In this document: positions 26,205 through 58,530 of the stretch, in pieces
How the letters are laid out: every line of letters begins with the position of its first letter
How positions within the stretch are numbered: position 1 is the stretch's first letter
Origin: Eledone cirrhosa
Lineage: Eukaryota
Reading direction: 5' to 3'
Assembly (NCBI GenBank): GCA_964016885.1
Contig: OZ024743.1
Location: 76,446,001 to 76,510,000, forward strand
Length of the DNA: 64,000 bases
Notes under the pieces: generated by a model
The model's database searches: none
The model's input: the letters and a program-made list of their open reading frames with translations, nothing else
Told to the model about the DNA's origin: nothing
Program-made: the position numbers and the translations under genes

Positions 26205-26500
26205 TACGGGGTACACTGAAGAGGTTTTGAGACTTTTATAAGAGAGAAATTTATTTAACTCAGATCAACACAAAACTCTAGTTTTCCTCAATGTAGGAGC
26301 CTCCAACTTCAATAGTTGTTGCACACCCACCACTTTTGGAAGACCTCCAAAGTAAAGGTGTCCAGGCTGCTTGTCACGGCTTCCTTCATCTCCTTCATAT
26401 TCTCAAAGCGGATACTCCTGAGCTTCTCCTGCAGTCTCGGGAACATTCTGAAGTCACATGGGCCTAAGCCTGGACTGTGGGTGGGATGAGGGACTGTTTT
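26205..26500 (-). pseudogene. Tc1/mariner (mariner-type) transposase C-terminal remnant with probable TIR end
   Basis: Minus-strand translation KTVPHPTHSPGLGPCDFRMFPRLQEKLRSIRFENMKEMKEAV...EVGGSYIEEN* matches the mariner HPPYSPDLAPCDF..FP.LK..L.G.RF motif. TA+CGGGG at 26205 resembles a mariner end with a TA target. Confidence 0.8.
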
Positions 26501-27752: not shown

Positions 27753-27938
27753 AACTATATAAAGGTATACATATAATATATCTTTATATATATATATATA
27801 AACATATTAAACATATCTATGTATACATAAGTTTTTGTGTGTATATATATATATATATCACGATAAATTAACGGAGCCATAGACTATCGCTATTCCCTGT
27901 CAGTCATGTGCTCAAAGGAGAAGAAATCCCGGACTCTT

Positions 27939-28085
27939 TATAATACAATATGTTGAAAAGGTACACACTAGTGAGAGAGATAGTGCGCCATCACTCGAAC
28001 AGGGAAAAACCACCAGTGTACACTGGTGGTTTTTCCTTGTGGTCTCTCTCTCTAGTGTGTTACCTTTTCAACATATTGTATTATA
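27939..28085. repeat. Fold-back element: outer inverted repeat plus central 34-bp perfect palindrome
   Basis: TATAATACAATATGTTGAAAAGGTA... pairs with ...TACCTTTTCAACATATTGTATTATA; GGAAAAACCACCAGTGTACACTGGTGGTTTTTCC at 28003-28036; abuts (TA)n. Confidence 0.85.
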
Positions 28086-28593: not shown

Positions 28594-28643
<50 letters not shown>

Positions 28644-28772
28644 AGAAGTTCTATTTAAATTGTTGGGATACAACAAGCAAATATTTTATAACTGATATAA
28701 AGCACTCAACAAATTATTGGAGTAAAAATACGATATATTAACAAATGGAAACTATATTTATAAAACCATATT

Positions 28773-28837
28773 TATTTCATTATACATATTTCAAGGACAC
28801 CAAGTTAAATTATGGTGTGCTTTCATCAGATAAAATA
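28773..28837 (-). ncRNA. Type I (minimal) hammerhead ribozyme in PLE 3' pseudo-LTR
   Basis: UAUUUUAU-CUGAUGA-AAGCACACCA(loop)UGGUGUCCUU-GAAA-UAUGUA-UA^AUGAAAUA. Stem I is 8 bp, stem II is 9 bp with one C.C mismatch, stem III is very short, and the cleavage triplet is AUA. Confidence 0.82.
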
Positions 28838-29010
28838 TAATATAGAGCAGTTTTATAAATAAATATTGACATACCCTTAAAGAATGCGACCATTACTGTT
28901 GGAAGCTCCCGGATAGTGGGGTTATAAATTTATTTATACTATTATGTAAATTAGTATTGGATATTTTTAAATTTAAATCAGAGTAGATTTAAATAAGCCG
29001 TTGGGTTACG

Positions 29011-29055
<45 letters not shown>

Positions 29056-29875
29056 ACAAGAGAGAGAAAAAAGAGAGAGATATAAAAAGAGAAAAAATAG
29101 CAAACCTCTAAGAAGAAAATAAGAAAAAAGAGAGAGAGAAAAGAAGAAGAAAAGAGAAAGCGAAAGCTCTAAGTGATAGGTTGTTGAGTTATCTTAACAT
29201 TTGAGATGAAGTGAAAGAATAAATATTTAATGGATGAATAGAGAAATGTAAATAAGCGTGAATGGAAAATACATACATAATAGGAAAATTTTAACCATTG
29301 TTTAAATATGATTAAATGTTTAGTTTATCATTTAAATTATTGAGATCTATACATTAAAAATTCAGATCTATATATTATTAAGAAATCTATATATTATTAA
29401 GACTATATATTATTAAAAAATCTATATATTATTAAAAGAATATATTCATATATATACATACGCACACACAGATATATATACATATAAATATATATGCATA
29501 CAAATATATATACATATACCTACATACATATACATATACATACAAAGTATAAAGGATTTTTTAATTTAAGATATAGGAATTTTCATAAACTTATAGATTT
29601 TTCTGAGAAAATCTTAGAAAAACCGAGAAAATTATTTCTAACTAATATCAAAACAGCGTGAAGGAAATTACGTTATTTAGTTATATAAATGTTACAAATG
29701 TTAAGATACTAAAGGAAATTTTAGGTTATACACACTTTATGTTATTATACAAATTTTTTTTAATATAAGTTTTATATCTAATAAATCCACCTGTTATGTA
29801 GTTGTGACTGTTATTATATAGGTTTGTTTATCACGAACCTTAAGAAAATCCTTATAAACGAGTGCAACCGAATTG

Positions 29876-29957
<82 letters not shown>

Positions 29958-30144
29958 ATCCCCACATAGATACACATAGACGTACCTACACATATAGGTA
30001 GATATGCATCACACATATACATATACATATACATACACACACATAAATATATATACATACATACATATATATATATACACATACATATAGAGAGAGAGAT
30101 ATATAAATACAGTACATAGTATAATTGAAGTACATAATATATAT

Positions 30145-30270
30145 AAAATAAAATAAAATAAAATAAAATTAAATTAAATTAAATTAAATTAAATTAAATT
30201 AAATTAAATTAAATTAAATTAAATTAAATTAAATTAAATTAAATTAAATTAAATTAAATTAAATTAAAAT
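30145..30270. repeat. (AAAAT)n/(AAATT)n pentanucleotide microsatellite inside the PLE 3' region
   Basis: Direct reading. Confidence 0.95.
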
Positions 30271-30671
30271 AAAAAAGAATTTTACGATTTGGAAATATAA
30301 TTATAAGTAATATAACTTTAAACCAATATAATTTTTAAAATATTATAGAATATTTCAAGTTATAATTTTAAAATAATAATATGTTTAATTGATTCAGTAT
30401 AAAAATTTTCTTCGTATGTTTAACTTAATTTTAGAGCCATAAGAGAAAGAAAGAGAAACTTTCAAAAGAGAAACTTTCAAAAATAGGAGAAACTTTCAAA
30501 TAATACTTTTCCCTTTTAAGAGCTTTCAGTATGTTTCTCTAGAAGAGTTTTTTATATTTATTTATATTTAGGAAGAAAAATTTTTTAACTTGAGAGTTTA
30601 AGCAGTCAAATGAAGGAATCTAATGATTTTTCGATAGGTTCAATATATTAATAGAATTAATTAATTATATA

Positions 30672-32873
30672 TTACATTTTAAATTTATATTTAAACGTTG
30701 AGTTCAATCTATGTCTGCAGTAACTGAATAAATTGTTCCTTAGGTTCAGGGAATTTTTGGTCTTTAATATAAAGAATATTTCCTCTATACAGAGATCACA
30801 ATTTTCTGAAGAGGAGTTAAAAGGAGTAGCTTTTGAAATAATATTCCAAAGCAACGAATATTTAACGTTCTTTCATTTGAGGTCCCATAATAAGCTAGAT
30901 AGAGAAGTTGAAGAATTTTTGTTTGGATGTGTAAAAGAATTTTTATGATTATTGAAACGGGATTTAAAATCTGAGGAAGTAGATCCCACATAATTAAATG
31001 AATTTAAATTAGGTTTTACATTACAATTATATACTATATTTTTAGCTAAGCAATTGTTATTTAACGGACAGTTAGATTTATTTCTACAGTTACATTTATC
31101 AAATTGGATATTGCTTGGGTTATTAGTGGTATTTTGGTTAGGCTTTAAATTTCTATTATTAATTCTATTAATATTTTGCGCTAAATCTTTGGTGAATGAA
31201 TAAGTTAATTTTATAGTATGTCTATTAAAAATTGAGTAATATCTATGTGTTCTAGGGAAGCATTTGTCAAGAGCTTTAAAGAATAGTTTAGCAATAGGGG
31301 TTTTAATATTTAATGAGAAAGGAGGAGCTAACCATAATATATTCCTAGTTCTATTTCTTTTTTTTTTTTCCGAATTATTGTAAGGTTTTCTATTATAGTT
31401 GTTAAAATTGTTAAAATATTTAAAATTGTTAAGATTATGGTTAGTTGCTATATTATTATTATCAATGTATTTAATTTTATTTCTATACCCAGCTTTACCT
31501 AACGCTTCGTTGTAATAATGTGCTTTATCATCAAATATATTCTTATTAGCTGAAATTCTAGAAATGCGTTGCTGTACAGAATTCACTATAGTATTTTTAA
31601 CGGATCTGGGGTGATTAGAGTTAAAATTAACGTAGTTTAAGTTCTCACTTAGTTTGTGAAATGGATAAAGAAGTCATGTGTTAAGGTTTAATGTTACATC
31701 TAGAAAGTTAACTATGTTATGGTTACTCTCTATTTCTACTTTTAGATTAAGGTAATTAAAAAATTGTATAATTTCTTTTCTTTTCCTATTTAATTCACAG
31801 TTATTATTTTCGATAAGTAAAAGCATGTCGTCACGATATAAACCTCCGGTCATCTCAGGTATTTTCCTATGTAGAGAATTATTTATAAAGAGGCCCACAA
31901 TATCCGTTACCTGAGCGGAATCGGATGATCCCATAGTTATATCAAAGTTATTATTTATATCTGCTCTAGTCCAGAGTTGGTTATTAAATTCTATTAATGT
32001 TTTCCGTGCCGATAATATAATGTGTATTTCATTACTAGTTAAGTCTGTATGTTTAAATGCGTAAGTTAGTGCTTTATTAAGTAGATTAGGAGTGATGGAT
32101 GAGTAATAATTAGCAATATCCAATTGAATAAACTTATTATTATAGTTATATTTAATTTCCTTAAACCAATCGATAACTTCACTAGTTCCTTTCCATAATT
32201 TTAAATTTCTTAATTTGTGGTATTATTCTGTCTAAAATATTCTTGCTAAGTCTGCCAAGGTCCGATTTAGATGGTGCAATTAATCTGACTGGTAAATCAG
32301 TTTCAAAGTTCCTTTTGTGATCCTTCATATTAATTTTAGGTTTCCTTGGCATGAAGGGTTGTGTCTTATTTTCAATGACTAGTTCATGCATTATATAAGA
32401 GGCATCTGTATTCAATTTTTCAAGGTCGTCATTATTTGTTACTTTGTATTTCTTCCTTAATTCCTTTAATATAAGATCGTTATAAATGTTCTTTTGTATT
32501 CCATAAAGATTATTGGTTTTGTCAGACTTGACTAGAATTTTCTCCGTTTTCTCCAAGTTTTCAATATTATTTTTGATACATCTTAAGTAATCCTGGCCTT
32601 TGAAGTTGTTTTTGAATTTGATGCTTTGGATGATAGATATGATTTCATTTTCAAAATCCATTAGTAGTTTGTTGGGGGGTCGATTTTTTTTAGATTTGAA
32701 GATTTTATCAAGATTGGAGACATTCTCATTTACATTAGATTTATCGAAGTGGAAAGCACGCCATCTGATTCTTCTTATAAAAGAGTCTGATTTTTTATTA
32801 ATTGTTTAATAAAGTCTTTATTCCTAGGTAAAGGTATGTCCTTTAGAGAAGAAGAGATCTTAAAGAATTCCAT
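30672..32873 (-). pseudogene. PLE reverse transcriptase + GIY-YIG endonuclease ORF, disrupted (2 frameshifts, 2 in-frame TGA)
   Basis: Reconstruction: MEFFKISSSLKDIPLP...IRRIRWRAFHF...KSDKTNNLY...KDHKRNF...PVRLIAPSKSDLGRLSK...FIQLDIANYYSSI...FDITMGSSDSAQVTDIVGL...GLYRDD...VNFLDVTLNL...SNHP...CNCRNKSNCPLNNNCL..NIVY...YVGST...FKSRFNNH...CDLCIEE...CRH. Frameshifts lie at ~32795 (T6 run) and ~32205; TGA codons at 31674-31676 and 30873-30875. Confidence 0.93.
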
Positions 32874-33665
32874 TTTTCAGTTATAATATAAAGCGCTCAA
32901 CAATAAAGGATGAGAATATATGTAGAAGTTCTATTTAAATTGTTGGGAAACAACAAGCAAATATTTTTATAATTGATATAAAGCACTCAACAAATTATTG
33001 GAGTATGTAGGTGTATGTATATATATTTGTATGTATATATATTTATATGTATATATATCTGTGTGTGCGTATGTATATATATGAATATATTCTTTTAATA
33101 ATTTATAGATTTTTTTTAATAATTTATAGTCTTAATAATATATAGATCTCAATTTTTAATGTATAGATCTCAATAATTTAAATGATAAACTAAACATTTA
33201 ATCATATTTAAACAATGGTTAAAATTTTCCTATTATGTATGTATTTTCCATTCACGCTTATTTACATTTCTCTATTCATCCATTAAATATTTATTCTTTC
33301 ACTTCATCTCAAATGTTAAGATAACTCAACAACCTATCACTTAGAGCTTTCGCTTTCTCTTTTGTTCTTCTTTTCTCTCTCTCTCTTTTTTCTTATTTTC
33401 TTCTTAGAGGTTTTTCTCTTTTTTTCTTTTTTCTCTTTTTTCTCTTTTTTCTCTTTTTTCTCTTTTTTCTCTTTTTTCTCTCTCACTCTCTCTTTCTCCG
33501 TAACCCAACGGCTTATTTAAATCTACTCTGATTTAAAAATATCCAATACTAATTTACATAATAGTATAAATAAATTTATAACCCCACTATCCGGGAGCTT
33601 CCAACAGTAATGGTCGCATTCTTTAAGGGTATGTCAATATTTATTTATAAAACTGCTCTATATTA

Positions 33666-33730
33666 TATTTTATCTGATGAAAGCACACCGTAATTTAACT
33701 TGGTGTCCTTGAAATATGTATAATGAAATA
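33666..33730 (+). ncRNA. Type I hammerhead ribozyme, second copy in inverted pseudo-LTR
   Basis: TATTTTAT CTGATGA AAGCACACCG...TGGTGTCCTT GAAA TATGTA TA ATGAAATA; one A>G change in stem II still pairs as G-U. Confidence 0.82.
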
Positions 33731-33771
33731 AATATGGTTTTATAAATATAGTTTCCATTTGTTAATATATC

Positions 33772-33873
<102 letters not shown>

Positions 33874-33966
33874 AGAAAAAATATATATATATAGGTAGAA
33901 CACTGGAAGGTAATATCCGTAGTGGTAGAGCACTCAGTCCAAGGGACGAGTTAGATAGAAGTGGTT

Positions 33967-34030
33967 ACACAACAGTTAGTTCACCATACCGAGAACAATT
34001 GTTCTGTGTATGGTGAACTAACTGTTGTGT
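33967..34030. repeat. 64-bp near-perfect palindrome
   Basis: ACACAACAGTTAGTTCACCATAC-CG-AGAACAATTGTTCT-GT-GTATGGTGAACTAACTGTTGTGT. Confidence 0.9.
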
Positions 34031-34269
34031 TACTACATACTAAATAGCCAGACCACTGGAAGATGGCGACAGAGATTCACTGAACCAGCCAGACCACTTC
34101 GCAGAGCTCTGTCTTGTGGATGGCCATTCCGTTACCAATTGACGTAAGTATGGAAGCAGCTCTGGAATCCATGATGCCAGATATTTCCACTGCTATGAGT
34201 CCGAAACTAGTATTTATTGATTAATATCGAAAACTTTGATAACTGTCAGATATACTTGCATGTGTATGG

Positions 34270-35088: not shown

Positions 35089-35170
<82 letters not shown>

Positions 35171-35224
35171 CGTTTCTGAATTTGTTTAGCAAGATTCTTT
35201 ATCTGAAATCGTGTGTTGAAACCG

Positions 35225-35438
<214 letters not shown>

Positions 35439-36311: not shown

Positions 36312-36522
36312 GAAAAAACTATATTTAGAGAAAAAGGTTTTTTCAAAGAATCCTTTTTCTTAAAACCCCTCGGCCAACGACCTCAACCTATCCCAATCAC
36401 CACCTTCCCCTACCACCAGAAAACATAAATACCACCATATCACGATGACAGTTGGCTTTCCTGATGATTTCCTTCAAATGAAATAGTTCTAGTCCTCTAG
36501 AAGCCGTTTCTATATTAAACAT

Positions 36523-36589
<67 letters not shown>

Positions 36590-36592
<3 letters not shown>

Positions 36593-36804
36593 ATTAAATA
36601 AATGGAAACTATATTTATAAAACCATATTTATTTCATTATATATATTTCAGGGATATCATATTAACAATATGCTATGCCTTCCTCAGACAAAATACAGAC
36701 ATTTATTTAATATTGTAAATATACTCCAAATACTTGTCGAGTGCTTTTATATCAGTTATAAATATTTACTAGTTGTAACCCAACAATTTAAATATAACTT
36801 TCCA
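36590..36804 (+). mobile_element. Mini PLE pseudo-LTR insertion of a related subfamily (inverted segment + 3' terminal segment) in (TA)n
   Basis: 36590-36720 resembles 28735-28870 in the same orientation, and 36722-36804 resembles the reverse complement of 28641-28724. (TA)n lies on both sides. Confidence 0.82.
36630..36695 (-). ncRNA. Type I hammerhead ribozyme, diverged homolog with compensatory stem II
   Basis: UAUUUUGU-CUGAGGA-AGGCAUAGCAUA(loop)UAUGAUAUCCCU-GAAA-UAUAUA-UA^AUGAAAUA. Confidence 0.72.
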
Positions 36805-36820
36805 TATATATATATATATA

Positions 36821-37146
<326 letters not shown>

Positions 37147-43112: not shown

Positions 43113-46100
43113 ATGCGTAGAGACATGGAACTTCACCGTTTGGTGTCCAAATGCGCGATTAGCCCACCGGGAGTGTGAAACCGCTAGTTCTTGTTAGGAC
43201 ATCTTAGAAGGAAAACTCTGATGTAAAACCTGCAACTCAATGGCAGCCAATGATGTTGACATGTTCTTCTTTTTGGATACCTGTCACCATTGTTCAGAGA
43301 GTGGGGTTGGCCCAGTGTAAGGTCTTTCTTGTCACCATTGTTCAGAGAGTGGGGTTGGTCCAGTGCAAGGTATTTCTTGTCACCATTGTTCAGAGAGTGG
43401 GGTTGGTCCAGTGCAAGGTCTTTCTTGTCACCATTGTTCAGAGAGTGGGGTTGGCCCAGTGCAAGGTATTTCTTGTCACCATTGTTCAGAGAGTGGGGTT
43501 GGCCCAGTGCAAAGTTTTTCTTGTCACCATTGTTCAGAGAGTGGGGTTGGCCCAGTGCAAGGTCTTTCTTGTCACCATTGTTCAGAGAGTGGGGTTGGTC
43601 CAGTGTAAGGTCTTTCTTGTCACCATTGTTCAGAGAGTGGGGTTGGCCCAGTGCAAGGTCTTTCTGGTCACAATTGTTCAGAGAGTGGGGTTGGTCCAGT
43701 GCAAGGTCTTTCTTGTCACCATTGTTCAGAGAGTGGGGTTGGTCCAGTGCAAGGTCTTTCTTGTCACCATTGTTCAGAGAGTGGGGTTGGCCCAGTGCAA
43801 GGTCTTTCTTGTCACCATTGTTCAGAGAGTGGGGTTGGCCCAGTGCAAGGTCTTTCTTGTCACCATTGTTCAGAGAGTGGGGTTGGCCCAGTGCAAGGTC
43901 TTTCTTGTCACCATTGTTCAGAGAATGGGGTTGGTCCAGTGCAAGGTCTTTCTTGTCACCATTGTTCAGAGAGTGGGGTTGGCCCAGTGCAAGGTCTTTC
44001 TTGTCACCATTGTTCAGAGAGTGGGGATGGCCCAGTGCAAGGTCTTTCTTGTCACCATTGTTCAGAGAGTGGGGTTGGTCCAGTGCAAGGTCTTTCTTGT
44101 CACCATTGTTCAGAGAGTGGGGTTGGCCCAGTGCAAGGTCTTTCTTGTCACCATTGTTCAGAGAGTGGGGTTGGCCCAGTGCAAGGTCTTTCTTGTCACC
44201 ATTGTTCAGAGAGTGGGGTTGGTCCAGTGCAAGGTCTTTCTTGTCACCATTGTTCAGAGAGTGGGGTTGGTCCAGTGTAAGGTCTTTCTTGTCACCATTG
44301 TTCAGAGAGTGGGGTTGGCCCAGTGCAAGGTCTTTCTTGTCACCATTGTTCAGAGAGTGGGGTTGGTCCAGTGTAAGGTCTTTCTTGTCACCATTGTTCA
44401 GAGAGTGGGGTTGGCCCAGTGCAAGGTCTTTCTTGTCACCATTGTTCAGAGAGTGGGGTTGGCCCAGTGCAAGGTCTTTCTTGTCACCATTGTTCAGAGA
44501 GTGGGGTTGGTCCAGTGTAAGGTCTTTCTTGTCACCATTGTTCCAGAGAGTGGGGTTGGCTCAGTGTAAGGTCTTTCTTGTCACCATTGTTCAGAGAGTG
44601 GGGTTGGCCCAGTGCAAGGTCTTTCTTGTCACCATTGTTCAGAGAGTGGGGTTGGCCCAGTGCAAGGTCTTTCTTGTCACCATTGTTCAGAGAGTGGGGT
44701 TGGTCCAGTGCAAGGTCTTTCTTGTCACCATTGTTCAGAGAGTGGGGTTGGTCCAGTGTAAGGTCTTTCTTGTCACCATTGTTCAGAGAGTGGGGTTGGC
44801 CCAGTGCAAGGTCTTTCTTGTCACCATTGTTCAGAGAGTGGGGTTGGTCCAGTGTAAGGTCTTTCTTGTCACCATTGTTCAGAGAGTGGGGTTGGCCCAG
44901 TGCAAGGTCTTTCTTGTCACCATTGTTCAGAGAGTGGGGTTGGTCCAGTGTAAGGTCTTTCTTGTCACCATTGTTCAGGGAGTGGGGTTGGCCCAGTGCA
45001 AGGTCTTTCTTGTCACCATTGTTCAGAGAGTGGGGTTGGTCCAGTGTAAGGTCTTTCTTGTCACCATTGTTCAGAGAGTGGGGTTGGTCCAGTGCAAGCT
45101 CTTTCTTGTCACCATTGTTCAGAGAGTGGGGTTGGCCCAGTGCAAGGTCTTTCTTGTCACCATTGTTCAGAGAGTGGGGTTGGTCCAGTGTAAGGTCTTT
45201 CTTGTCACCATTGTTCAGAGAGTGGGGTTGGCCCAGTGCAAGGTCTTTCTTGTCACTATTGTTCAGAGAGTGGGGTTGGTCCAGTGTAAGGTCTTTCTTG
45301 TCACCATTGTTCAGAGAGTGGGGTTGGCCCAGTGCAAGGTCTTTCTTGTCACCATTGTTCAGAGAGTGGGGTTGGTCCAGTGTAAGGTCTTTCTTGTCAC
45401 CAATGTTCAGAGAGTGGGGTTGGCCCAGTGCAAGGTCTTTCTTGTCACCATTGTTCAGAGAGTGGGGTTCGCCCAGTGCAAGGTCTTTCTTGTCACCATT
45501 GTTCAGAGAGTGGGGTTGGTCCAGTGTAAGGTCTTTCTTGTCACCATTGTTCAGAGAGTGGGGTTGGCCCAGTGTAAGGTCTTTCTTGTCACCATTGTTC
45601 AGAGAGTGGGGTTGGTCCAGTGCAAGGTCTTTCTTGCCACCATTGTTCAGAGAGTGGGGTTGGCCCAGTGTAAGGTCTTTCTTGTCACCATTGTTCAGAG
45701 AGTGGGGTTGGTCCAGTGCAAGGTCTTTCTTGTCACCATTGTTCAGAGAGTGGGGTTGGTCCAGTGTAAGGTCTTTCTTGTCACCATTGTTCAGAGAGTG
45801 GGGTTGGTCCAGTGCAAGGTCTTTCTTGTCACCATTGTTCAGAGAGTGGGGTTAGTCCAGTGCAAGGTCTTTCTTGTCACCATTGTTCAGAGTGGGGTTG
45901 GTCCAGTGTAAGGTCTTTCTTGTCACCATTGTTCAGAGAGTGGGGTTGGCCCAGTGTAAGGTCTTTCTTGTCACCATTGTTCAGAGAGTGGGGTTGGTCC
46001 AGTGCAAGGTCTTTCTTGTCACCATTGTTCAGAGAGTGGGGTTGGTCCAGTGTAAGGTCTTTCTTGTCACCATTGTTCAGAGAGTGGGGTTGGTCCAGTG

Positions 46101-49100
46101 TAAGGTCTTTCTTGTCACCATTGTTCAGAGAGTGGGGTTGGTCCAGTGCAAGTTCTTTCTTGTCACCATTGTTCAGAGAGTGGGGTTGGTCCAGTGCAAG
46201 GTCTTTCTTGTCACCATTGTTCAGAGAGTGGGGTTGGTCCAGTGCAAGGTCTTTCTTGTCACCATTGTTCAGAGAGTGGGGTTGGTCCAGTGCAAGGTCT
46301 TTCTTGTCACCATTGTTCAGAGAGTGGGGTTGGTCCAGTGCAAGGTCTTTCTTGTCACCATTGTTCAGAGAGTGGGGTTGGTCCAGTGCAAGGTCTTTCT
46401 TGTCACCATTGTTCAGAGAGTGGGGTTGGTCCAGTGCAAGGTCTTTCTTGTCACCATTGTTCAGAGAGTGGGGTTGGTCCAGTGTAAGGTCTTTCTTGTC
46501 AGCATTGTTCAGAGAGCGGGGTTGGCCCAGTGTAAGGTATTTCTTGTCACCATTGTTCAGAGAGTGGGGTTGGTCCAGTGCAAGGTCTTTCTTGTCACCA
46601 TTGTTCAGAGAGTGGGGTTGGTCCAGTGTAAGGTCATTCTTGTCACCATTGTTCAGAGAGTGGGTTGGTCCAGTGCAAGGTCTTTCTTGTCACCATTGTT
46701 CAGAGAGTGGGGTTGGTCCAGTGCAAGGTCTTTCTTGTCACCATTGTTCAGAGAGTGGGGTTGGTCCAGTGTAAGGTCTTTCTTGTCACCATTGTTCAGA
46801 GAGTGGGGTTGGCCCAGTGTAAGGTCTTTCTTGTCACCATTGTTCAGAGAGTGGGGTTGGTCCAGTGCAAGGTCTTTCTTGTCACCATTGTTCAGAGAGT
46901 GGGGTTGGTCCAGTGTAAGGTCTTTCTTGTCACCATTGTTCAGAGAGTGGGGTTGGTTCAGTGTAAGGTCTTTCTTGTCACCATTGTTCAGAGAGTGGGG
47001 TTGGTCCAGTGTAAGGTCTTTCTTGTCACCATTGTTCAGAGAGTGGGGTTGGCCCAGTGTAAGGTCTTTCTTGTCACCATTGTTCAGAGAGTGGGGTTGG
47101 TCCAGTGCAAGGTCTTTCTTGTCACCATTGTTCAGAGAGTGGGGTTGGTCCAGTGTAAGGTCTTTCTTGTCACCATTGTTCAGAGAGTGGGGTTGGCCCA
47201 GTGTAAGGTCTTTCTTGTCACCATTGTTCAGAGAGTGGGGTTGGTCCAGTGTAAGGTCTTTCTTGTCACCATTGTTCAGAGAGTGGGGTTGGCCCAGTGC
47301 AAGGTCTTTCTTGTCACCATTGTTCAGAGAGTGGGGTTGGCCCAGTGCAAGGTCTTTCTTGTCACCATTGTTCAGAGAGTGGGGTTGGTCCAGTGTAAGG
47401 TCTTTCTTGTCACCATTGTTCAGAGAGTGGGGTTGGCCCAGTGCAAGGTCTTTCTTGTCACCATTGTTCAGAGAGTGGGGTTGGCCCAGTGCAAGGTCTT
47501 TCTTGTCACCATTGTTCAGAGAGTGGGGTTGGTCCAGTGCAAGGTCTTTCTTGTCACCATTGTTCAGAGAGTGGGGTTGGTCCAGTGTAAGGTCTTTCTT
47601 GTCACCATTGTTCAGAGAGTGGGGTTGGTCCAGTGCAAGGTCTTTCTTGTCACCATTGTTCAGAGAGTGGGGTTAGTCCAGTGCAAGGTCTTTCTTGTCA
47701 CCATTGTTCAGAGTGGGGTTGGTCCAGTGTAAGGTCTTTCTTGTCACCATTGTTCAGAGAGTGGGGTTGGCCCAGTGTAAGGTCTTTCTTGTCACCATTG
47801 TTCAGAGAGTGGGGTTGGTCCAGTGCAAGGTCTTTCTTGTCACCATTGTTCAGAGAGTGGGGTTGGTCCAGTGTAAGGTCTTTCTTGTCACCATTGTTCA
47901 GAGAGTGGGGTTGGTCCAGTGCAAGGTCTTTCTTGTCACCATTGTTCAGAGAGTGGGGTTGGTCCAGTGCAAGGTCTTTCTTGTCACCATTGTTCAGAGA
48001 GTGGGGTTGGTCCAGTGTAAGGTCTTTCTTGTCACCATTGTTCAGAGAGTGGGGTTGGTCCAGTGCAAGGTCTTTCTTGTCACCATTGTTCAGAGAGTGG
48101 GGTTGGTCCAGTGCAAGGTCTTTCTTGTCACCATTGTTCAGAGAGTGGGGTTGGTCCAGTGCAAGGTCTTTCTTGTCACCATTGTTCAGAGAGTGGGGTT
48201 GGTCCAGTGTAAGGTCTTTCTTGTCACCATTGTTCAGAGAGCGGGGTTGGCCCAGTGTAAGGTATTTCTTGTCACCATTGTTCAGAGAGTGGGGTTGGTT
48301 CAGTGCAAGGTCTTTCTTGTCACCATTGTTCAGAGAGTGGGGTTGGTCCAGTGTAAGGTCATTCTTGTCACCATTGTTCAGAGAGTGGGGTTGGTCCAGT
48401 GCAAGGTCTTTCTTGTCACCATTGTTCAGAGAGTGGGGTTGGTCCAGTGCAAGGTCTTTCTTGTCACCATTGTTCAGAGAGTGGGGTTGGTCCAGTGTAA
48501 GGTCTTTCTTGTCACCATTGTTCAGAGAGTGGGGTTAGCTCAGTGTAAGGTCTTTCTTGTCACCATTGTTCAGAGAGTGGGGTTGGCCCAGTGCAAGGTC
48601 TTTCTTGTCACCATTGTTCAGAGAGTGGGGTTGGCCCAGTGCAAGGTCTTTCTTGTCACCATTGTTCAGAGAGTGGGGTTGGTCCAGTGTAAGGTCTTTC
48701 TTGTCACCATTGTTCAGAGAGTGGGGTTGGCCCAGTGCAAGGTCTTTCTTGTCACCATTGTTCAGAGAGTGGGGTTGGCCCAGTGCAAGGTCTTTCTTGT
48801 CACCATTGTTCAGAGAGTGGGGTTGGCCCAGTGCAAGGTCTTTCTTGTCACCATTGTTCAGAGAGTGGGGTTGGTCCAGTGCAAGGTCTTTCTTGTCACC
48901 ATTGTTCAGAGAGTGGGGTTGGTCCAGTGTAAGGTCTTTCTTGTCACCATTGTTCAGAGAGTGGGGTTGGTCCAGTGCAAGGTCTTTCTTGTCACCATTG
49001 TTCAGAGAGTGGGGTTAGTCCAGTGCAAGGTCTTTCTTGTCACCATTGTTCAGAGTGGGGTTGGTCCAGTGTAAGGTCTTTCTTGTCACCATTGTTCAGA

Positions 49101-52100
49101 GAGTGGGGTTGGCCCAGTGTAAGGTCTTTCTTGTCACCATTGTTCAGAGAGTGGGGTTGGTCCAGTGCAAGGTCTTTCTTGTCACCATTGTTCAGAGAGT
49201 GGGGTTGGTCCAGTGTAAGGTCTTTCTTGTCACCATTGTTCAGAGAGTGGGGTTGGTCCAGTGCAAGGTCTTTCTTGTCACCATTGTTCAGAGAGTGGGG
49301 TTGGTCCAGTGCAAGGTCTTTCTTGTCACCATTGTTCAGAGAGTGGGGTTGGTCCAGTGTAAGGTCTTTCTTGTCACCATTGTTCAGAGAGTGGGGTTGG
49401 TCCAGTGCAAGGTCTTTCTTGTCACCATTGTTCAGAGAGTGGGGTTGGTCCAGTGCAAGGTCTTTCTTGTCACCATTGTTCAGAGAGTGGGGTTGGTCCA
49501 GTGCAAGGTCTTTCTTGTCACCATTGTTCAGAGAGTGGGGTTGGTCCAGTGTAAGGTCTTTCTTGTCACCATTGTTTAGAGAGCGGGGTTGGCCCAGTGT
49601 AAGGTATTTCTTGTCACCATTGTTCAGAGAGTGGGGTTGGTCCAGTGCAAGGTCTTTCTTGTCACCATTGTTCAGAGAGTGGGGTTGGTCCAGTGTAAGG
49701 TCATTCTTGTCACCATTGTTCAGAGAGTGGGGTTGGTCCAGTGCAAGGTCTTTCTTGTCACCATTGTTCAGAGAGTGGGGTTGGTCCAGTGCAAGGTCTT
49801 TCTTGTCACCATTGTTCAGAGAGTGGGGTTGGTCCAGTGTAAGGTCTTTCTTGTCACCATTGTTCAGAGAGTGGGGTTGGCCCAGTGTAAGGTCTTTCTT
49901 GTCACCATTGTTCAGAGAGTGGGGTTGGTCCAGTGCAAGGTCTTTCTTGTCACCATTGTTCAGAGAGTGGGGTTGGTCCAGTGTAAGGTCTTTCTTGTCA
50001 CCATTGTTCAGAGAGTGGGGTTGGTTCAGTGTAAGGTCTTTCTTGTCACCATTGTTCAGAGAGTGGGGTTGGTCCAGTGTAAGGTCTTTCTTGTCACCAT
50101 TGTTCAGAGAGTGGGGTTGGCCCAGTGTAAGGTCTTTCTTGTCACCATTGTTCAGAGAGTGGGGTTGGTCCAGTGCAAGGTCTTTCTTGTCACCATTGTT
50201 CAGAGAGTGGGGTTGGTCCAGTGTAAGGTCTTTCTTGTCACCATTGTTCAGAGAGTGGGGTTGGCCCAGTGTAAGGTCTTTCTTGTCACCATTGTTCAGA
50301 GAGTGGGGTTGGTCCAGTGTAAGGTCTTTCTTGTCACCATTGTTCAGAGAGTGGGGTTGGCCCAGTGCAAGGTCTTTCTTGTCACCATTGTTCAGAGAGT
50401 GGGGTTGGCCCAGTGCAAGGTCTTTCTTGTCACCATTGTTCAGAGAGTGGGGTTGGTCCAGTGTAAGGTCTTTCTTGTCACCATTATTCAGAGAGTGGGG
50501 TTGGCTCAGTGTAAGGTCTTTCTTGTCACCATTGTTCAGAGAGTGGGGTTGGCCCAGTGCAAGGTCTTTCTTGTCACCATTGTTCAGAGAGTGGGGTTGG
50601 CCCAGTGCAAGGTCTTTCTTGTCACCATTGTTCAGAGAGTGGGGTTGGCCCAGTGCAAGGTCTTTCTTGTCACCATTGTTCAGAGAGTGGGGTTGGTCCA
50701 GTGCAAGGTCTTTCTTGTCACCATTGTTCAGAGAGTGGGGTTGGTCCAGTGTAAGGTCTTTCTTGTCACCATTGTTCAGAGAGTGGGGTTGGTCCAGTGC
50801 AAGGTCTTTCTTGTCACCATTGTTCAGAGAGTGGGGTTAGTCCAGTGCAAGGTCTTTCTTGTCACCATTGTTCAGAGTGGGGTTGGTCCAGTGTAAGGTC
50901 TTTCTTGTCACCATTGTTCAGAGAGTGGGGTTGGCCCAGTGTAAGGTCTTTCTTGTCACCATTGTTCAGAGAGTGGGGTTGGTCCAGTGCAAGGTCTTTC
51001 TTGTCACCATTGTTCAGAGAGTGGGGTTGGTCCAGTGTAAGGTCTTTCTTGTCACCATTGTTCAGAGAGTGGGGTTGGTCCAGTGCAAGGTCTTTCTTGT
51101 CACCATTGTTCAGAGAGTGGGGTTGGTCCAGTGCAAGGTCTTTCTTGTCACCATTGTTCAGAGAGTGGGGTTGGTCCAGTGTAAGGTCTTTCTTGTCACC
51201 ATTGTTCAGAGAGTGGGGTTGGTCCAGTGCAAGGTCTTTCTTGTCACCATTGTTCAGAGAGTGGGGTTGGTCCAGTGCAAGGTCTTTCTTGTCACCATTG
51301 TTCAGAGAGTGGGGTTGGTCCAGTGCAAGGTCTTTCTTGTCACCATTGTTCAGAGAGTGGGGTTGGTCCAGTGTAAGGTCTTTCTTGTCACCATTGTTTA
51401 GAGAGCGGGGTTGGCCCAGTGTAAGGTATTTCTTGTCACCATTGTTCAGAGAGTGGGGTTGGTCCAGTGCAAGGTCTTTCTTGTCACCATTGTTCAGAGA
51501 GTGGGGTTGGTCCAGTGTAAGGTCATTCTTGTCACCATTGTTCAGAGAGTGGGGTTGGTCCAGTGCAAGGTCTTTCTTGTCACCATTGTTCAGAGAGTGG
51601 GGTTGGTCCAGTGCAAGGTCTTTCTTGTCACCATTGTTCAGAGAGTGGGGTTGGTCCAGTGTAAGGTCTTTCTTGTCACCATTGTTCAGAGAGTGGGGTT
51701 GGCCCAGTGTAAGGTCTTTCTTGTCACCATTGTTCAGAGAGTGGGGTTGGTCCAGTGCAAGGTCTTTCTTGTCACCATTGTTCAGAGAGTGGGGTTGGTC
51801 CAGTGTAAGGTCTTTCTTGTCACCATTGTTCAGAGAGTGGGGTTGGTTCAGTGTAAGGTCTTTCTTGTCACCATTGTTCAGAGAGTGGGGTTGGTCCAGT
51901 GTAAGGTCTTTCTTGTCACCATTGTTCAGAGAGTGGGGTTGGCCCAGTGTAAGGTCTTTCTTGTCACCATTGTTCAGAGAGTGGGGTTGGTCCAGTGCAA
52001 GGTCTTTCTTGTCACCATTGTTCAGAGAGTGGGGTTGGTCCAGTGTAAGGTCTTTCTTGTCACCATTGTTCAGAGAGTGGGGTTGGCCCAGTGTAAGGTC

Positions 52101-55100
52101 TTTCTTGTCACCATTGTTCAGAGAGTGGGGTTGGTCCAGTGTAAGGTCTTTCTTGTCACCATTGTTCAGAGAGTGGGGTTGGCCCAGTGCAAGGTCTTTC
52201 TTGTCACCATTATTCAGAGAGTGGGGTTGGCCCAGTGCAAGGTCTTTCTTGTCACCATTGTTCAGAGAGTGGGGTTGGTCCAGTGCAAGGTCTTTCTTGT
52301 CACCATTGTTCAGAGAGTGGGGTTGGTCCAGTGCAAGGTCTTTCTTGTCACCATTGTTCAGAGAGTGGGGTTAGTCCAGTGCAAGGTCTTTCTTGTCACC
52401 ATTGTTCAGAGAGTGGGGTTGGCCCAGTGCAAGGTCTTTCTTGTCACCATTGTTCAGAGAGTGGGGTTGGTCCAGTGTAAGGTCTTTCTTGTCACCATTG
52501 TTCAGAGAGTGGGGTTGGCCCAGTGCAAGGTCTTTCTTGTCACCATTGTTCAGAGAGTGGGGTTGGCCCAGTGCAAGTTCTTTCTTGTCACCATTGTTCA
52601 GAGAGTGGGGTTGGCCCAGTGCAAGGTCTTTCTTGTCACCATTGTTCAGAGAGTGGGGTTGGTCCAGTGCAAGGTCTTTCTTGTCACCATTGTTCAGAGA
52701 GTGGGGTTGGTCCAGTGTAAGGTCTTTCTTGTCACCATTGTTCAGAGAGTGGGGTTGGCTCAGTGTAAGGTCTTTCTTGTCACCATTGTTCAGAGAGTGG
52801 GGTTGGCCCAGTGCAAGGTCTTTCTTGTCACCATTGTTCAGAGAGTGGGGTTGGCCCAGTGCAAGGTCTTTCTTGTCACCATTGTTCAGAGAGTGGGGTT
52901 GGTCCAGTGCAAGGTCTTTCTTGTCACCATTGTTCAGAGAGTGGGGTTGGCCCAGTGCAAGGTCTTTCTTGTCACCATTGTTCAGAGAGTGGGGTTGGTC
53001 CAGTGCAAGGTCTTTCTTGTCACCATTGTTCAGAGAGTGGGGTTGGCCCAGTGCAAGGTCTTTCTTGTCACCATTGTTCAGAGAGTGGGGTTGGTCCAGT
53101 GTAAGGTCTTTCTTGTCACCATTGTTCAGAGAGTGGGGTTACCCCGGTGCAAGGTCTTTCTTGTCACCATTGTTCAGAGAGTGGGGTTGGTCCAGTGTAA
53201 GGTCTTTCTTGTCACCATTGTTCAGAGAGTGGGGTTGGCCCAGTGCAAGGTCTTTCTTGTCACCATTGTTCAGAGAGTGGGGTTGGCCCAGTGCAAGGTC
53301 TTTCTTGTCACCATTGTTCAGAGAGTGGGGTTGGCCCAGTGCAAGGTCTTTCTTGTCACCATTGTTCAGAGAGTGGGGTTGGTCCAGTGCAAGGTCTTTC
53401 TTGTCACCATTGTTCAGAGAGTGGGGTTGGTCCAGTGTAAGGTCTTTCTTGTCACCATTGTTCAGAGAGTGGGGTTGGTCCAGTGCAAGGTCTTTCTTGT
53501 CACCATTGTTCAGAGAGTGGGGTTGGTCCAGTGTAAGGTCTTTCTTGTCACCATTGTTCAGAGAGTGGGGTTGGCCCAGTGTAAGGTCTTTCTTGTCACC
53601 ATTGTTCAGAGAGTGGGGTTGGTCCAGTGCAAGGTCTTTCTTGTCACCATTGTTCAGAGAGTGGGGTTGGTCCAGTGTAAGGTCTTTCTTGTCACCATTG
53701 TTCAGAGAGTGGGGTTGGTTCAGTGTAAGGTCTTTCTTGTCACCATTGTTCAGAGAGTGGGGTTGGTCCAGTGTAAGGTCTTTCTTGTCACCATTGTTCA
53801 GAGAGTGGGGTTGGCCCAGTGTAAGGTCTTTCTTGTCACCATTGTTCAGAGAGTGGGGTTGGTCCAGTGCAAGGTCTTTCTTGTCACCATTGTTCAGAGT
53901 GGGATTGGTCCAGTGTAAGGTCTTTCTTGTCACCATTGTTCAGAGAGTGGGGTTGGCCCAGTGTAAGGTCTTTCTTGTCACCATTGTTCAGAGAGTGGGG
54001 TTGGTCCAGTGCAAGGTCTTTCTTGTCACCATTGTTCAGAGAGTGGGGTTGGTCCAGTGTAAGGTCTTTCTTGTCACCATTGTTCAGAGAGTGGGGTTGG
54101 TCCAGTGCAAGGTCTTTCTTGTCACCATTGTTCAGAGAGTGGGGTTGGCTCAGTGTAAGGTCTTTCTTGTGACCATTGTTCAGAGAGTGGGGCTGGTCCA
54201 GTGTAAGGTCTTTCTTGTCACCATTGTTCAGAGAGTGGGGTTGGCCCAGTGCAAGGTCTTTCTTGTCACCATTGTTCAGAGAGTGGGGTTGGCCCAGTGC
54301 AAGGTCTTTCTTGTCACCATTGTTCAGAGAGTGGGGTTGGTCCAGTGCAAGGTCTTTCTTGTCACCATTGTTCAGAGAGTGGGGTTGGTCCAGTGTAAGG
54401 TCTTTCTTGTCACCATTGTTCAGAGAGTGGGGTTGGTCCAGTGCAAGGTCTTTCTTGTCACCATTGTTCAGAGAGTGGGGTTGGTCCAGTGTAAGGTCTT
54501 TCTTGTCACCATTATTCAGAGAGTGGGGTTGGCTCAGTGTAAGGTCTTTCTTGTCACCATTGTTCAGAGAGTGGGGTTGGCCCAGTGCAAGGTCTTTCTT
54601 GTCACCATTGTTCAGAGAGTGGGGTTGGTCCAGTGCAAGGTCTTTCTTGTCACCATTGTTCAGAGAGTGGGGTTGGCCCAGTGCAAGGTCTTTCTTGTCA
54701 CCATTGTTCAGAGAGTGGGGTTGGCCCAGTGTAAGGTCTTTCTTGTCACCATTGTTCAGAGAGTGGGGTTGGTCCAGTGCAAGGTCTTTCTTGTCACCAT
54801 TGTTCAGAGAGTGGGGTTGGTCCAGTGTAAGGTCTTTCTTGTCACCATTGTTCAGAGAGTGGGGTTGGTTCAGTGCAAGGTCTTTCTTGTCACCATTGTT
54901 CAGAGTGGGGTTGGTCCAGTGTAAGGTCTTTCTTGTCACCATTGTTCAGAGAGTGGGGTTGGCCCAGTGTAAGGTCTTTCTTGTCACCATTGTTCAGAGA
55001 GTGGGGTTGGTCCAGTGCAAGGTCTTTCTTGTCACCATTGTTCAGAGAGTGGGGTTGGTCCAGTTTAAGGTCTTTCTTGTCACCATTGTTCAGAGAGTGG

Positions 55101-58100
55101 GGTTGGCCCAGTGTAAGGTCTTTCTTGTCACCATTGTTCAGAGAGTGGGGTTGGTCCAGTGCAAGGTCTTTCTTGTCACCATTGTTCAGAGAGTGGGGTT
55201 GGTCCAGTGTAAGGTCTTTCTTGTCACCATTGTTCAGAGAGTGGAGTTGGCCCAGTGCAAGGTCTTTCTTGTCACCATTGTTCAGAGATTGGGGTTGGCC
55301 CAGTGCAAGGTCTTTCTTGTCACCATTGTTCAGAGAGTGGGGTTGGTTCAGTGCAAGGTCTTTCTTGTCACCATTGTTCAGAGAGTGGGGTTGGTTCAGT
55401 GTAAGGTCTTTCTTGTCACCATTGTTCAGAGAGTGGGGTTGGTCCAGTGTAAGGTCTTTCTTGTCACCATTGTTCAGAGAGTGGGGTTGGCCCAGTGTAA
55501 GGTCTTTCTTGTCACCATTGTTCAGAGAGTGGGGTTGGTCCAGTGTAAGGTCTTTCTTGTCACCATTGTTCAGAGAGTGGGGTTGGTCCAGTGCAAGGTC
55601 TTTCTTGTCACCATTGTTCAGAGAGTGGGGTTGGTCCAGTGCAAGGTCTTTCTTGTCACCATTGTTCAGAGAGTGGGGTTGGTCCAGTGTAAAGTCTTTC
55701 TTGTCACCATTGTTCAGAGAGTGGGATTGGCCCAGTGCAAGGTCTTTCTTGTCACCATTGTTCAGAGAGTGGGGTTGGCCCAGTGCAAGGTCTTTCTTGT
55801 CACCATTGTTCAGAGAGTGGGGTTGGTTCAGTGCAAGGTCTTTCTTGTCACCATTGTTCAGAGAGTGGGGTTGGTCCAGTGTAAGGTCTTTCTTGTCACC
55901 ATTGTTCAGAGAGTGGGGTTGGTTCAGTGTAAGGTCTTTCTTGTCACTATTGTTCAGAGAGTGGGGTTGGTCCAGTGTAAGGTCTTTCTTGTCACCATTG
56001 TTCAGAGAGTGGGGTTGGCCCAGTGTAAGGTCTTTCTTGTCACCATTGTTCAGAGAGTGGGGTTGGTCCAGTGCAAGGTCTTTCTTGTCACCATTGTTCA
56101 GAGAGTGGGGTTGGTCCAGTGTAAGGTCTTTCTTGTCACCATTGTTCAGAGAGTGGGGTTGGCCCAGTGTAAGGTCTTTCTTGTCACCATTGTTCAGAGA
56201 GTGGGGTTGGTCCAGTGCAAGGTCTTTCTTGTCACCATTGTTCAGAGAGTGGGGTTGGTCCAGTGTAAGGTCTTTCTTGTCACCATTGTTCAGAGAGTGG
56301 AGTTGGCCCAGTGCAAGGTCTTTCTTGTCACCATTGTTCAGAGAGTGGGGTTGGTCCAGTGTAAAGTCTTTCTTGTCACCATTGTTCAGAGAGTGGGGTT
56401 GGCCCAGTGCAAGGTCTTTCTTGTCACCATTGTTCAGAGAGTGGGGTTGGCCCAGTGCAAGGTCTTTCTTGTCACCATTGTTCAGAGAGTGGGGTTGGTT
56501 CAGTGCAAGGTCTTTCTTGTCACCATTGTTCAGAGAGTGGGGTTGGTTCAGTGTAAGGTCTTTCTTGTCACCATTGTTCAGAGAGTGGGGTTGGCCCAGT
56601 GTAAGGTCTTTCTTGTCACCATTGTTCAGAGAGTGGGGTTGGTCCAGTGTAAGGTCTTTCTTGTCACCATTGTTCAGAGAGTGGGGTTGGCCCAGTGTAA
56701 GGTCTTTCTTGTCACCATTGTTCAGAGAGTGGGGTTGGTCCAGTGCAAGGTCTTTCTTGTCACAATTGTTCTGAGAGTGGGGTTGGTCCAGTGTAAGGTC
56801 TTTCTTGTCACAATTGTTCTGAGAGTGGGGTTGGTCCAGTGTAAGGTCTTTCTTGTCACCATTGTTCAGAGAGTGGGGTTGGCCCAGTGTAAGGTCTTTC
56901 TTGTCACCATTGTTCAGAGAGTGGGGTTGGCCCAGTGTATGGTCTTTCTTGTCACCATTGTTCAGAGAGTGGGGTTGGCCCAGTGAAGGTCTTTCTTGCC
57001 ACCATTGTTCAGAGAGTGGGGTTGGTCCAGTGCAAGGTCTTTCTTGTCACAATTGTTCTGAGAGTGGGGTTGGTCCAGTGTAAGGTCTTTCTTGTCACAA
57101 TTGTTCTGAGAGTGGGGTTGGTCCAGTGTAAGGTCTTTCTTGTCACCATTGTTCAGAGAGTGGGGTTGGCCCAGTGTAAGGTCTTTCTTGTCACCATTGT
57201 TCAGAGAGTGGGGTTGGCCCAGTGTATGGTCTTTCTTGTCACCATTGTTCAGAGAGTGGGGTTGGCCCAGTGAAGGTCTTTCTTGCCACCATTGTTCAGA
57301 GAGTGGGGTTGGTCCAGTGCAAGGTCTTTCTTGTCACCATTGTTCAGAGAGTGGGGTTGGTCTAGTGTAAGGTCTTTCTTGTCACCATTGTTCAGAGAGT
57401 GGGGTTGGCCCAGTGTAAGGTCTTTCTTGTCACCATTGTTCAGAGATTGGTGTTGGCCCAGTGCAAGTTCTTTCTTGTCACCATTGTTCAGAGAGTGGGT
57501 TGGCCCAGTGTAAGGTCTTTCTTGTCACCATTGTTCAGAGAGTGGGGTTGGCTCAGTGCAAGGTCTTTCTTGTCACCATTGTTCAGAGAGTGGGGTTGGT
57601 CCAGTGTAAGGTCTTTCTTGTCACCATTGTTCAGAGAGTGGGGTTGGTCCAGTGCAAGGTCTTTCTTGTCACCATTGTTCAGAGAGTGGGGTTGGTCCAG
57701 TGTAAGGTCTTTCTTGTCACCATTGTTCAGAGAGTGGGGTTGGCCCAGTGTAAGGTCTTTCTTGTCACCATTGTTCAGAGAGTGGGGTTGGCTCAGTGCA
57801 AGGTCTTTCTTGTCACCATTGTTCAGAGAGTGGGGTTGGTCCAGTGCAAGTTCTTTCTTGTCACCATTGTTCAGAGAGTGGGGTTGGTCCAGTGTAAGGT
57901 CTTTCTTGTCACCATTGTTCAGAGAGTGGGGTTGGTCCAGTGCAAGGTTTTTCTTGTCACCATTGTTCAGAGAGTGGGGTTGGCTCAGTGCAAGGTCTTT
58001 CTTGTCACCATTGTTCAGAGAGTGGGGTTGGTCCAGTGCAAGGTATTTCTTGTCACCATTGTTCAGAGAGTGGGGTTGGCTCAGTGTAAGGTCTTTCTTG

Positions 58101-58530
58101 TCACCATTGTTCAGAGAGTGGGGTTGGCCCAGTGCAAGGTCTTTCTTGTCACCATTGTTCAGAGAGTGGGGTCTGTCCAGTGTAAGGTCTTTCTTGTCAC
58201 CATTGTTCAGAGAGTGGGGTTGGCCCAGTGTAAGGTCTTTCTTGTCACGATTGTTCAGAGAGTGGGGTTGGTCCAGTGCAAGGTCTTTCTTGTCACCATT
58301 GTTCAGAGAGTGGGGTTGGCCCAGTGCAAGGTCTTTCTTGTCACCATTGTTCAGAGAGTGGGGTTGGCCCAGTGCAAGGTCTTTCTTGTCACCATTGTTC
58401 AGAGAGTGGGGTTGCCAGTGTATGTTTTGGTTGCCAACTCTGCGCAAGACATTTTAGATCATTGGGTGGGCTGAAAAACCAAATTCGATCGCTGAACTGT
58501 TAATTGTTATTGTGTGTGTGTATGTGTATA

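Follow-up and report, generated by a model that had tools for sequence, protein, structure and literature searches.

The window that we analyzed, 64,000 nt from the 3.0-Gb genome of Eledone cirrhosa, contains two related insertions, a 215-bp mini insertion at 36589..36803 and, 3 kb away, a 5.1-kb element at 28641-33772 (Table 1). The mini insertion is short and consists of two truncated arms, placed head to head, from a Hydra-clade Penelope-like element (PLE). As originally predicted, it runs from a (TA)n tract through an inverted, hammerhead-containing arm and a direct terminal arm into a second (TA)n tract, the whole spanning 36523-36828. Both arm starts needed revision. The inverted arm, previously placed at the equivalent of position 28735 of the large element, starts at 36589, which aligns to 28731, the exact base that ends the large element's own inverted arm (33772). 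The direct arm, thought to start at the word TACTCCA (28724-equivalent; 36722 in the mini insertion), begins 22 nt before it, at 36700 (28747-equivalent). Of the breakpoint that the two elements were said to share, the end of both inverted arms on the same base stands, as does the distance of 50 nt from this outer end to the predicted ribozyme cut (28781/28780). The TACTCCA breakpoint was misplaced and is not general (10/65 junctions, see below); in the large element, however, TACTCC (33005) is indeed where the direct arm begins.

Table 1. Positions of the features discussed, in window coordinates
Feature	Position	Strand	Remark
(TA)n target tract, left side of mini insertion	36523..36588	none	
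Tail-less (inverted) arm, mini insertion	36589..36698	-	Site S2 forms the outer end (36589), the base equivalent to 28731/33772
Minimal type I hammerhead motif, mini insertion	36630..36695	-	Descriptor match; predicted ribozyme
Single extra base (A), inner junction of mini insertion	36699		From comparison with intact subfamily copy L037
Tail-bearing (direct) arm, mini insertion	36700..36803	+	Outer end is site S1; first 16 bases repeat the end of the other arm
S2 bulged hairpin motif, mini insertion	36723..36745	+	7 nt after the S2 position
(TA)n target tract, right side of mini insertion	36804..36828	none	
Direct arm, large PLE	28641..33005	-	One 4.27-kb unit plus 84 nt of upstream pseudo-LTR
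Tail (~90 nt) between S2 and S1	28641..28730	-	
S2 hairpin motif, large element	28701..28723	-	Second copy at 32982-33004
Hammerhead motif, 3' pseudo-LTR of large element	28773..28837	-	Fold z -2.7; predicted cut 28781/28780
Initiator-like word	28911..28919	-	5' ends of arms pile up here, 262-280 nt from S1; putative RNA 5' end
RT and C-terminal GIY-YIG-type endonuclease ORF	30873..32873	-	Three broken frames in the window copy
S1 hairpin motif, 5' UTR	32892..32911	-	Just after the read-through S1 position, 32921
Inverted tail-less arm, large element	33006..33772	+	Outer end 33772 is S2, adjoining (TA)n 33773-33893
Hammerhead motif, inverted arm of large element	33666-33730		

The two arms of the mini insertion have 16 bases in common at the inner junction. 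The hammerhead is found only in one arm and the tail only in the other, so that each arm holds sequence absent from its partner and neither can be a plain copy of the other. The mini hammerhead was recognized by a descriptor (core CUGAnGA...GAAA, 8-bp stem I, palindromic stem III), and its monomer fold has a z score of +1.3. A minimal hammerhead, defined as core plus stem I, was matched by the descriptor in all three window arms, and in the distant family F the letters of stem I differ yet still pair. A scan of the window against Rfam gave low-complexity microRNA matches only, and matched neither a hammerhead nor a hairpin family.

The arms of the mini insertion agree with the large element at 90/103 and 86/100 bases, whereas relatives 100% identical to them are present on other chromosomes, and the flanks of the mini insertion, the large element, and the closest mini copy (L032) have no similarity to one another. 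The mini insertion is thus an independent, diverged insertion, as had been proposed, and by sequence its subfamily is placed as sister to that of the large element. The closest copy, at L032:1501-1704 on another chromosome, is nearly identical and has the same direct-arm start, with a junction that is 11 bp shorter, the shortening lying between two CAGA repeats; its flanks are unrelated. We considered, and rejected, the idea that the mini insertion is a self-copying unit, as this likeness may be due to chance in a copy chosen as the best match among thousands. The mini insertion is instead an ordinary by-product of truncation in a known clade, and the fixed end it shows corresponds to the tail boundary already known.

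The direct arm of the large element ends at S1 (28641) beside a (TA)n tract at 28596-28637, and its ORF starts at 32873 on the minus strand. The two arms of this element agree at 268/269 bases. A sister copy, L222, has a single 732-aa ORF with an RT core and C-terminal YVG/RFNNH motifs, and the window's own translation contains SDKT, IRWR (R for K), and CNCRNKSNC. These motifs agree, on comparison by eye, with those of published Hydra proteins, and the large element is assigned to the Hydra clade of PLEs. The RT protein has 286 homologues, the best 120 of which are 32-48% identical; the closest named ones are Argonauta hians proteins (36-38%). Searches of Pfam with the three ORF pieces and the intact ORF, and of PDB sequences, returned no significant match, and a metagenome scan found no relatives. 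Asparagine-rich stretches lie between RT and endonuclease (window 30873-31673; L222:3266-5521). The family is abundant: the genome contains 29,914 exact matches to a 27-mer taken from the terminal region and 6,015 to a 21-mer of family F, with none for either reversed control. Elsewhere in the window are two large satellites, one of a 37-bp unit in 708 copies (4-26189) and one of a 48-bp unit in 316 copies (43282-58414), and a minus-strand fragment at 26330-26490 that, by eye, we take to resemble the C-terminal part of a mariner-type transposase.

Two fixed outer ends and variable inner junctions

Arms were mapped in loci collected with five kinds of query (terminal region, mini insertion, upstream stretch, tail alone, and RT protein). 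Among 306 distinct arm ends, 132 lay at S1, 108 at S2, which is ~87-95 nt upstream of S1, and 4 at other TA-flanked positions; 62 were unreadable (broken, masked, or at a locus edge) and were excluded. Thus, 240 of the 244 readable ends fall at one of two sites, and the last letters of S2 ends are nearly constant. In 30 consecutive genomic matches chosen by position only, 17 arms end at S2, 12 at S1, and 1 is interrupted, with (TA)n bordering the ends of 29. Together with the mapped arm ends, these 29 of 30 matches establish that the outer end is fixed. S1 ends that adjoin (CA)n rather than (TA)n were also seen (L014, L016, L093, L148, L166, L182, and L207). The histogram of breakpoints proposed in the original prediction does give sharp peaks, and there are two of them, neither special to the inverted arm: of 23 long pairs, 14 have S2 and 9 have S1 at the end of the arm that bears the ORF. 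Arms of both kinds also occur without a visible partner. S2 is therefore a second terminus and not an inversion breakpoint in the L1 sense.

The two kinds of end are combined in a strict manner. We found 120 head-to-head pairs, and of the 95 readable at both ends, 92 have one S1 and one S2 (binomial P = 3.6e-24 against 50%). The rule was equally clear in the subsets not selected for either end, comprising 21/21 pairs from loci found with the upstream query and 21/22 from those found with the RT protein. Pairs taken by position from the matches listed were one-of-each in 17/17 cases for this family group and 17/18 for family F, one of the latter, scored as mixed, having a tail arm with a non-TA flank, and four further pairs not being assignable. 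These samples lean short, as from rows 31-100 of the matches 10 of the 19 listed pairs for the 27-mer and 10 of 17 for family F, those under ~1.1 kb, were used; two 3.4-kb pairs (L309/310 and L311/312) were paired from position with their middles unseen. Subfamilies D and E follow the same rule in the few pairs visible. Four exceptions were observed among 130 resolved pairs, two at L157, one at L224, and one at L291 (family F). From their sequences, the arms at L157 look chimeric between subfamilies, and the pair at L224 resembles a DNA fold-back in which its own flank was copied. The fixed end itself was already known.

Inner ends behave differently, and the proposal that the inversion point is programmed rather than random holds for the outer ends and fails for the inner junctions, which vary. 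S1 arms stop anywhere from 57 nt to several kilobases from the terminus; among 65 tight junctions (gaps of -37 to +39 nt), only 10 are 77-107 nt away from it, near S2. One preferred position was apparent, 262-280 nt from S1, where 24/72 arms end; the proportion was 14/33 among unselected partner arms, with 2 arms above 280 nt. The word at this position is initiator-like, and it also marks where the subfamilies start to resemble each other. A similar pile-up near 316-323 nt was seen in family F by a rougher method. The pile-up probably reflects run-off at a putative transcript 5' end ~275 nt upstream of S1. Many junctions are near-perfect palindromes, as would result if both cDNAs ran to the same RNA 5' end. 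The ribozyme cut site was considered as a hotspot for 5' ends and rejected, as only 3/72 arms end within 130-148 nt, and uncut RNA is indeed the substrate in vitro in the experiments described in PMC11167929. In three copies (L177, L184, and L142), the direct arm exceeds one unit by 355-1216 nt, which is longer than a transcript from 275 nt supplies and points to tandem or circular templates. A classic L1-type inversion geometry was seen at L192:6358-6609, where the end of the inverted piece coincides with the stop of the direct arm within the ORF and the flank is non-TA.

A bulged hairpin motif follows both sites

The AT-rich internal priming site for the (TA)n target that was first put forward to explain the shared end finds no support, given that better (TA)n runs go unused and the site match is 0-5 nt. 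In read-through copies, runs of 5-9 nt occur at several places in the same 300 nt and are not used, while counted over both sites the match to (TA)n is 0-6 nt (3 nt at S2 in family A), and at L245 an S2 end is found without a match at the first base. AT-richness does not choose the termini.

Both sites are instead followed by the same motif, a bulged hairpin of the form RCUC, further pair(s), a loop of 3-26 nt, a two-base bulge starting with U, GAGY, and RCU. The S2 copy lies within the tail. The S1 copy lies in the 5' UTR, outside the inserted sequence, and hence can act only on a read-through template. Each terminus is ~6-9 nt 5' of its hairpin copy: the commonest spacing between the start of the TA tract and the motif was 7 nt (36 ends), 9 nt (33), 6 nt (21), and 7 nt (28) in four clusters, the exact start being blurred by a few bases owing to short TA matches. 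For the window element and four related copies, the alignment score of the motif duplication exceeded that of all 500 shuffles. In subfamilies D, E, and F, the duplication was not detected by plain alignment (89-356 of 500 shuffles scored as high); the loops differ there, and the anchored motif still follows both sites.

Of 75 motif clusters seen in at least three loci, 25 were retained by a filter on the bulge U and the following RCT, and in these Watson-Crick pairs were present in 19, 17, 15, and 13 of 25 at the four free positions, against shuffled expectations of 9.7, 8.6, 9.4, and 5.9; slid controls were at or below chance. Without the filter, pair 1 holds (35/75 versus 19), and the upper pairs are marginal (P = 0.035-0.06). 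These P values overstate independence, since the clusters are related. In 16 hand-picked motif instances, pair 1 was paired in 16/16 and pair 5 in 15/16. A count based on a MAFFT alignment, in which the motif was out of register, gave 48% paired and no signal, and anchored script counts were used in its place. The hairpin is weak (~ -4 kcal/mol) and is not the minimum-energy fold in 4 of 8 S2 contexts. In addition, the S1 hairpin of family A has a U-U at pair 6, and in the window element the 5' strand of the S1 hairpin is degenerate. Three of the stem pairs are near-invariant, and for this reason the motif could also be a DNA signal read by sequence rather than RNA. On balance, we infer that the hairpins act as RNA and set the register of the RT start.

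In families A-F, pair 1 is A-U in the S2 hairpin and G-C in the S1 hairpin; in other families, the tail hairpin has G-C. Inspection by eye of published consensus sequences found the motif twice at the 5' end of Hydra-1_Ajap from a sea cucumber, once, in the tail, in Hydra-2_Ajap and coral Hydra-2_Amil, loosely twice in Hydra-1_Crog from a sea louse, and partly in Hydra-1_Obim, and did not find it in the incomplete consensus of Hydra-1_Amil. About a dozen further repeat families with the same bulged hairpin (L068, L101, L127, L134, L098, L114, L189, L171, L304, and others) account for many of the background matches to the hairpin pattern. In most of them, a microsatellite follows after a further 60-105 nt, and a pattern search matched a hammerhead upstream in 4 of 16 such hairpin instances.

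The window holds several further short inserts. A second PLE-like end at 36459-36522, a hammerhead-like core plus ~50 nt, abuts the left (TA)n tract of the mini insertion and matches, by eye, the family with a hairpin at L101:1833, stopping just before the hairpin position. To the right of the mini insertion, a further fold-back insert lies between TA tracts at 36826-37014, part of which resembles the tail (79% over 43 bp). Short fold-back inserts also lie between microsatellites at 33894-34060, 35169-35312, and 27858-28085, the last matching by eye a family with the hairpin motif at L170:6792.

Proposed twin priming on a single RNA and its alternatives

Judged by the in vitro behavior of PAc, an Anolis element, the two termini would be RT start sites. 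We assign a probability of roughly 60% to a model in which one RNA carrying two hairpins is used to prime both strands of the (TA)n target. The element's RT would bind both hairpins, ~90 nt apart, on one RNA, which would serve both primers, probably via a protein dimer. Both strands of the (TA)n target would be cut, and each 3' end would prime a few bases upstream of one hairpin. The cDNAs would then stop early or run off the transcript 5' end, and microhomology or end joining would connect them head to head. Ordinary transcripts would start ~275 nt upstream of S1, which would account for most copies being short minis, and long copies would need tandem or circular RNA. As a single RNA has exactly one S1 and one S2, the pairing rule follows without further assumptions. 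The arms usually span the same stretch of RNA, and a single template therefore needs strand displacement, which is assumed here. Experiments with PAc in vitro show both strands cut and extended, with two internal starts and no homology needed, and the protein is an AlphaFold-predicted dimer (PMC11167929). The same source reports a start site that is alike for both strands, which counts against the model. The broader proposition, namely that a duplicated bulged RNA hairpin conserved across animal phyla docks two RT units on one transcript, each starting a fixed few bases upstream, so that twin priming is hard-wired, seems to us an even bet.

A different route to one tail per pair would be a single priming event, after which the cDNA folds back into a palindromic intermediate in which each arm has a tail; the endonuclease, reading the motif as DNA, then trims one arm to S2. 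Self-priming from junction palindromes has been proposed (PMC3846280), the tail has been ascribed to EN-mediated resolution (PMC8557442), the endonuclease of D. virilis needs the tail for recognition (cited by PMC11167929), and the many near-perfect palindromic junctions fit this route. We nonetheless regard it as unlikely. The palindromes are simply explained if both cDNAs reach one and the same RNA 5' end, the covariation, with its loops of 3-26 nt, is what a folded single strand would show, and the S1 motif, located in the 5' UTR, is usable only on a read-through template; moreover, in many pairs, including the mini insertion, the S2 arm is the longer one, so that the first-made arm would need trimming. 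It is also conceivable, with slightly less weight again, that each strand is primed by a separate RNA or enzyme unit and that an asymmetric complex distinguishes the S1 from the S2 hairpin. No strand displacement on a shared template would be needed, and the difference at pair 1 is consistent in families A-F. The G-C pair in the tail hairpin of other families shows that this difference is not universal, and the near identity of the arms of one insertion (268/269 in the large element), where subfamilies differing by 5-15% coexist, speaks against separate RNAs.

The original prediction amounts to twin priming of the classic L1 type: the (TA)n overhang would pair with whichever AT-rich internal site matches best, and the direct arm would stop at that site. 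The short TA-like matches (0-6 nt) that follow both sites are in keeping with it, as are the 10/65 S1 arms ending within 77-107 nt, a set that roughly includes both window elements. We consider it improbable: the longer (TA)n runs nearby and the unmatched first base at L245 speak against homology as the selector, 55/65 direct arms do not stop at the second priming site, and S2 also ends ORF-bearing and partnerless arms. Finally, closeness and a similar layout might suggest that the mini insertion arose by decay of the large element or by its segmental duplication, the latter raised in the original prediction as a possible objection. With ~86% identity to that element versus 100% to copies on other chromosomes, and unrelated flanks, we reject it, as its probability is close to nil.

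Relation to known elements and significance

L1 twin priming is the familiar case in which the RNA is copied from primers on both target strands and the two cDNAs are united in head-to-head orientation, the second site being set by chance homology next to the stop of the first cDNA. In the elements described here, the site is fixed, better matches are unused, and the arms overlap by tens to thousands of bases. A direct arm that stops beside the internal priming site, as in L1, was found in 10/65 cases, with L192 as the one classic-looking case, and a variable, homology-chosen internal site was not found. Any target-site duplication of the L1 kind would be masked by the (TA)n tract.

Contrary to the statement that the arrangement had not been described, the tail and the inverted truncated copy are documented in PMC3846280 and PMC8557442, where the tail on inverted pseudo-LTRs is optional and one-sided, and two RT start sites bounding the tail were obtained in vitro for Anolis PAc (PMC11167929). 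The elements share with the Hydra clade (Craig et al. 2021, PMC8557442) the DKT, RW(K/R), and CxCx5C motifs, the C-terminal GIY-YIG-type domain, a hammerhead near the 3' end, (TA)n targeting, a 5' inverted truncated copy, and a one-end tail. They differ in unit length, which is 4.27 kb owing to a long low-complexity 3' region and is generally <3 kb in the clade (a tendency and not a diagnostic trait in PMC8557442), in a tail of ~90-100 nt versus 30-40 nt in the same source, and in hammerhead flanks unlike those of Hydra-1_Obim. With the Poseidon element PAc of Anolis carolinensis (Frangieh et al. 2024, PMC11167929), they have in common two adjacent fixed starts bounding the tail, an AT-rich target, and little or no primer-template homology. 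In PAc, a single AC-rich stem-loop within the ORF contains both sites, which are used alike by both strands in vitro (PMC11167929), whereas here the sites are located before the start codon, every site is accompanied by a hairpin copy, and one of each is present in genomic pairs. Penelope of Adineta vaga (Arkhipova et al. 2013, PMC3846280) likewise has a head-to-head inverted pseudo-LTR with junction palindromes, an optional tail on one arm (31 bp there), TATA/initiator-like words in the pseudo-LTR, and an Asn-rich stretch in the ORF; its structure was attributed to self-priming, and its copies are too few for end statistics. Non-LTR retrozymes (bioRxiv 10.64898/2026.07.22.740005) are also short noncoding hammerhead sequences tied to PLE pseudo-LTRs. 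As described there, they are tandem monomers with one hammerhead each; the mini insertion is one inverted pair with a single hammerhead and, unlike them, a direct truncation product of an autonomous family.

No description of the twin hairpin or of the one-of-each rule was found in the literature searched, which consisted of openly accessible texts. The words hairpin, stem-loop, and dimer do not occur in the main text of PMC8557442, nor do pairing counts in its parts covered here. Both PMC8557442 and PMC11167929 list how PLEs come to have inverted repeats and a one-sided tail among the questions still to be answered.

The ~30,000 exact matches to a single 27-mer provide enough copies to read the mechanism from its products, and for annotators the two sites give a rule for locating both true ends of Hydra elements. 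A 25-nt RNA motif turns the question of mechanism into small experiments in which it is mutated, swapped, or moved, with a predicted shift of the start, and in which one RNA is compared with two. If true, hard-wired twin priming would explain together why the tail is one-sided, why the pseudo-LTR is inverted, why junctions are palindromic, and why short copies are so abundant; it would also offer a defined RNA handle on the mobile elements most closely related to telomerase.
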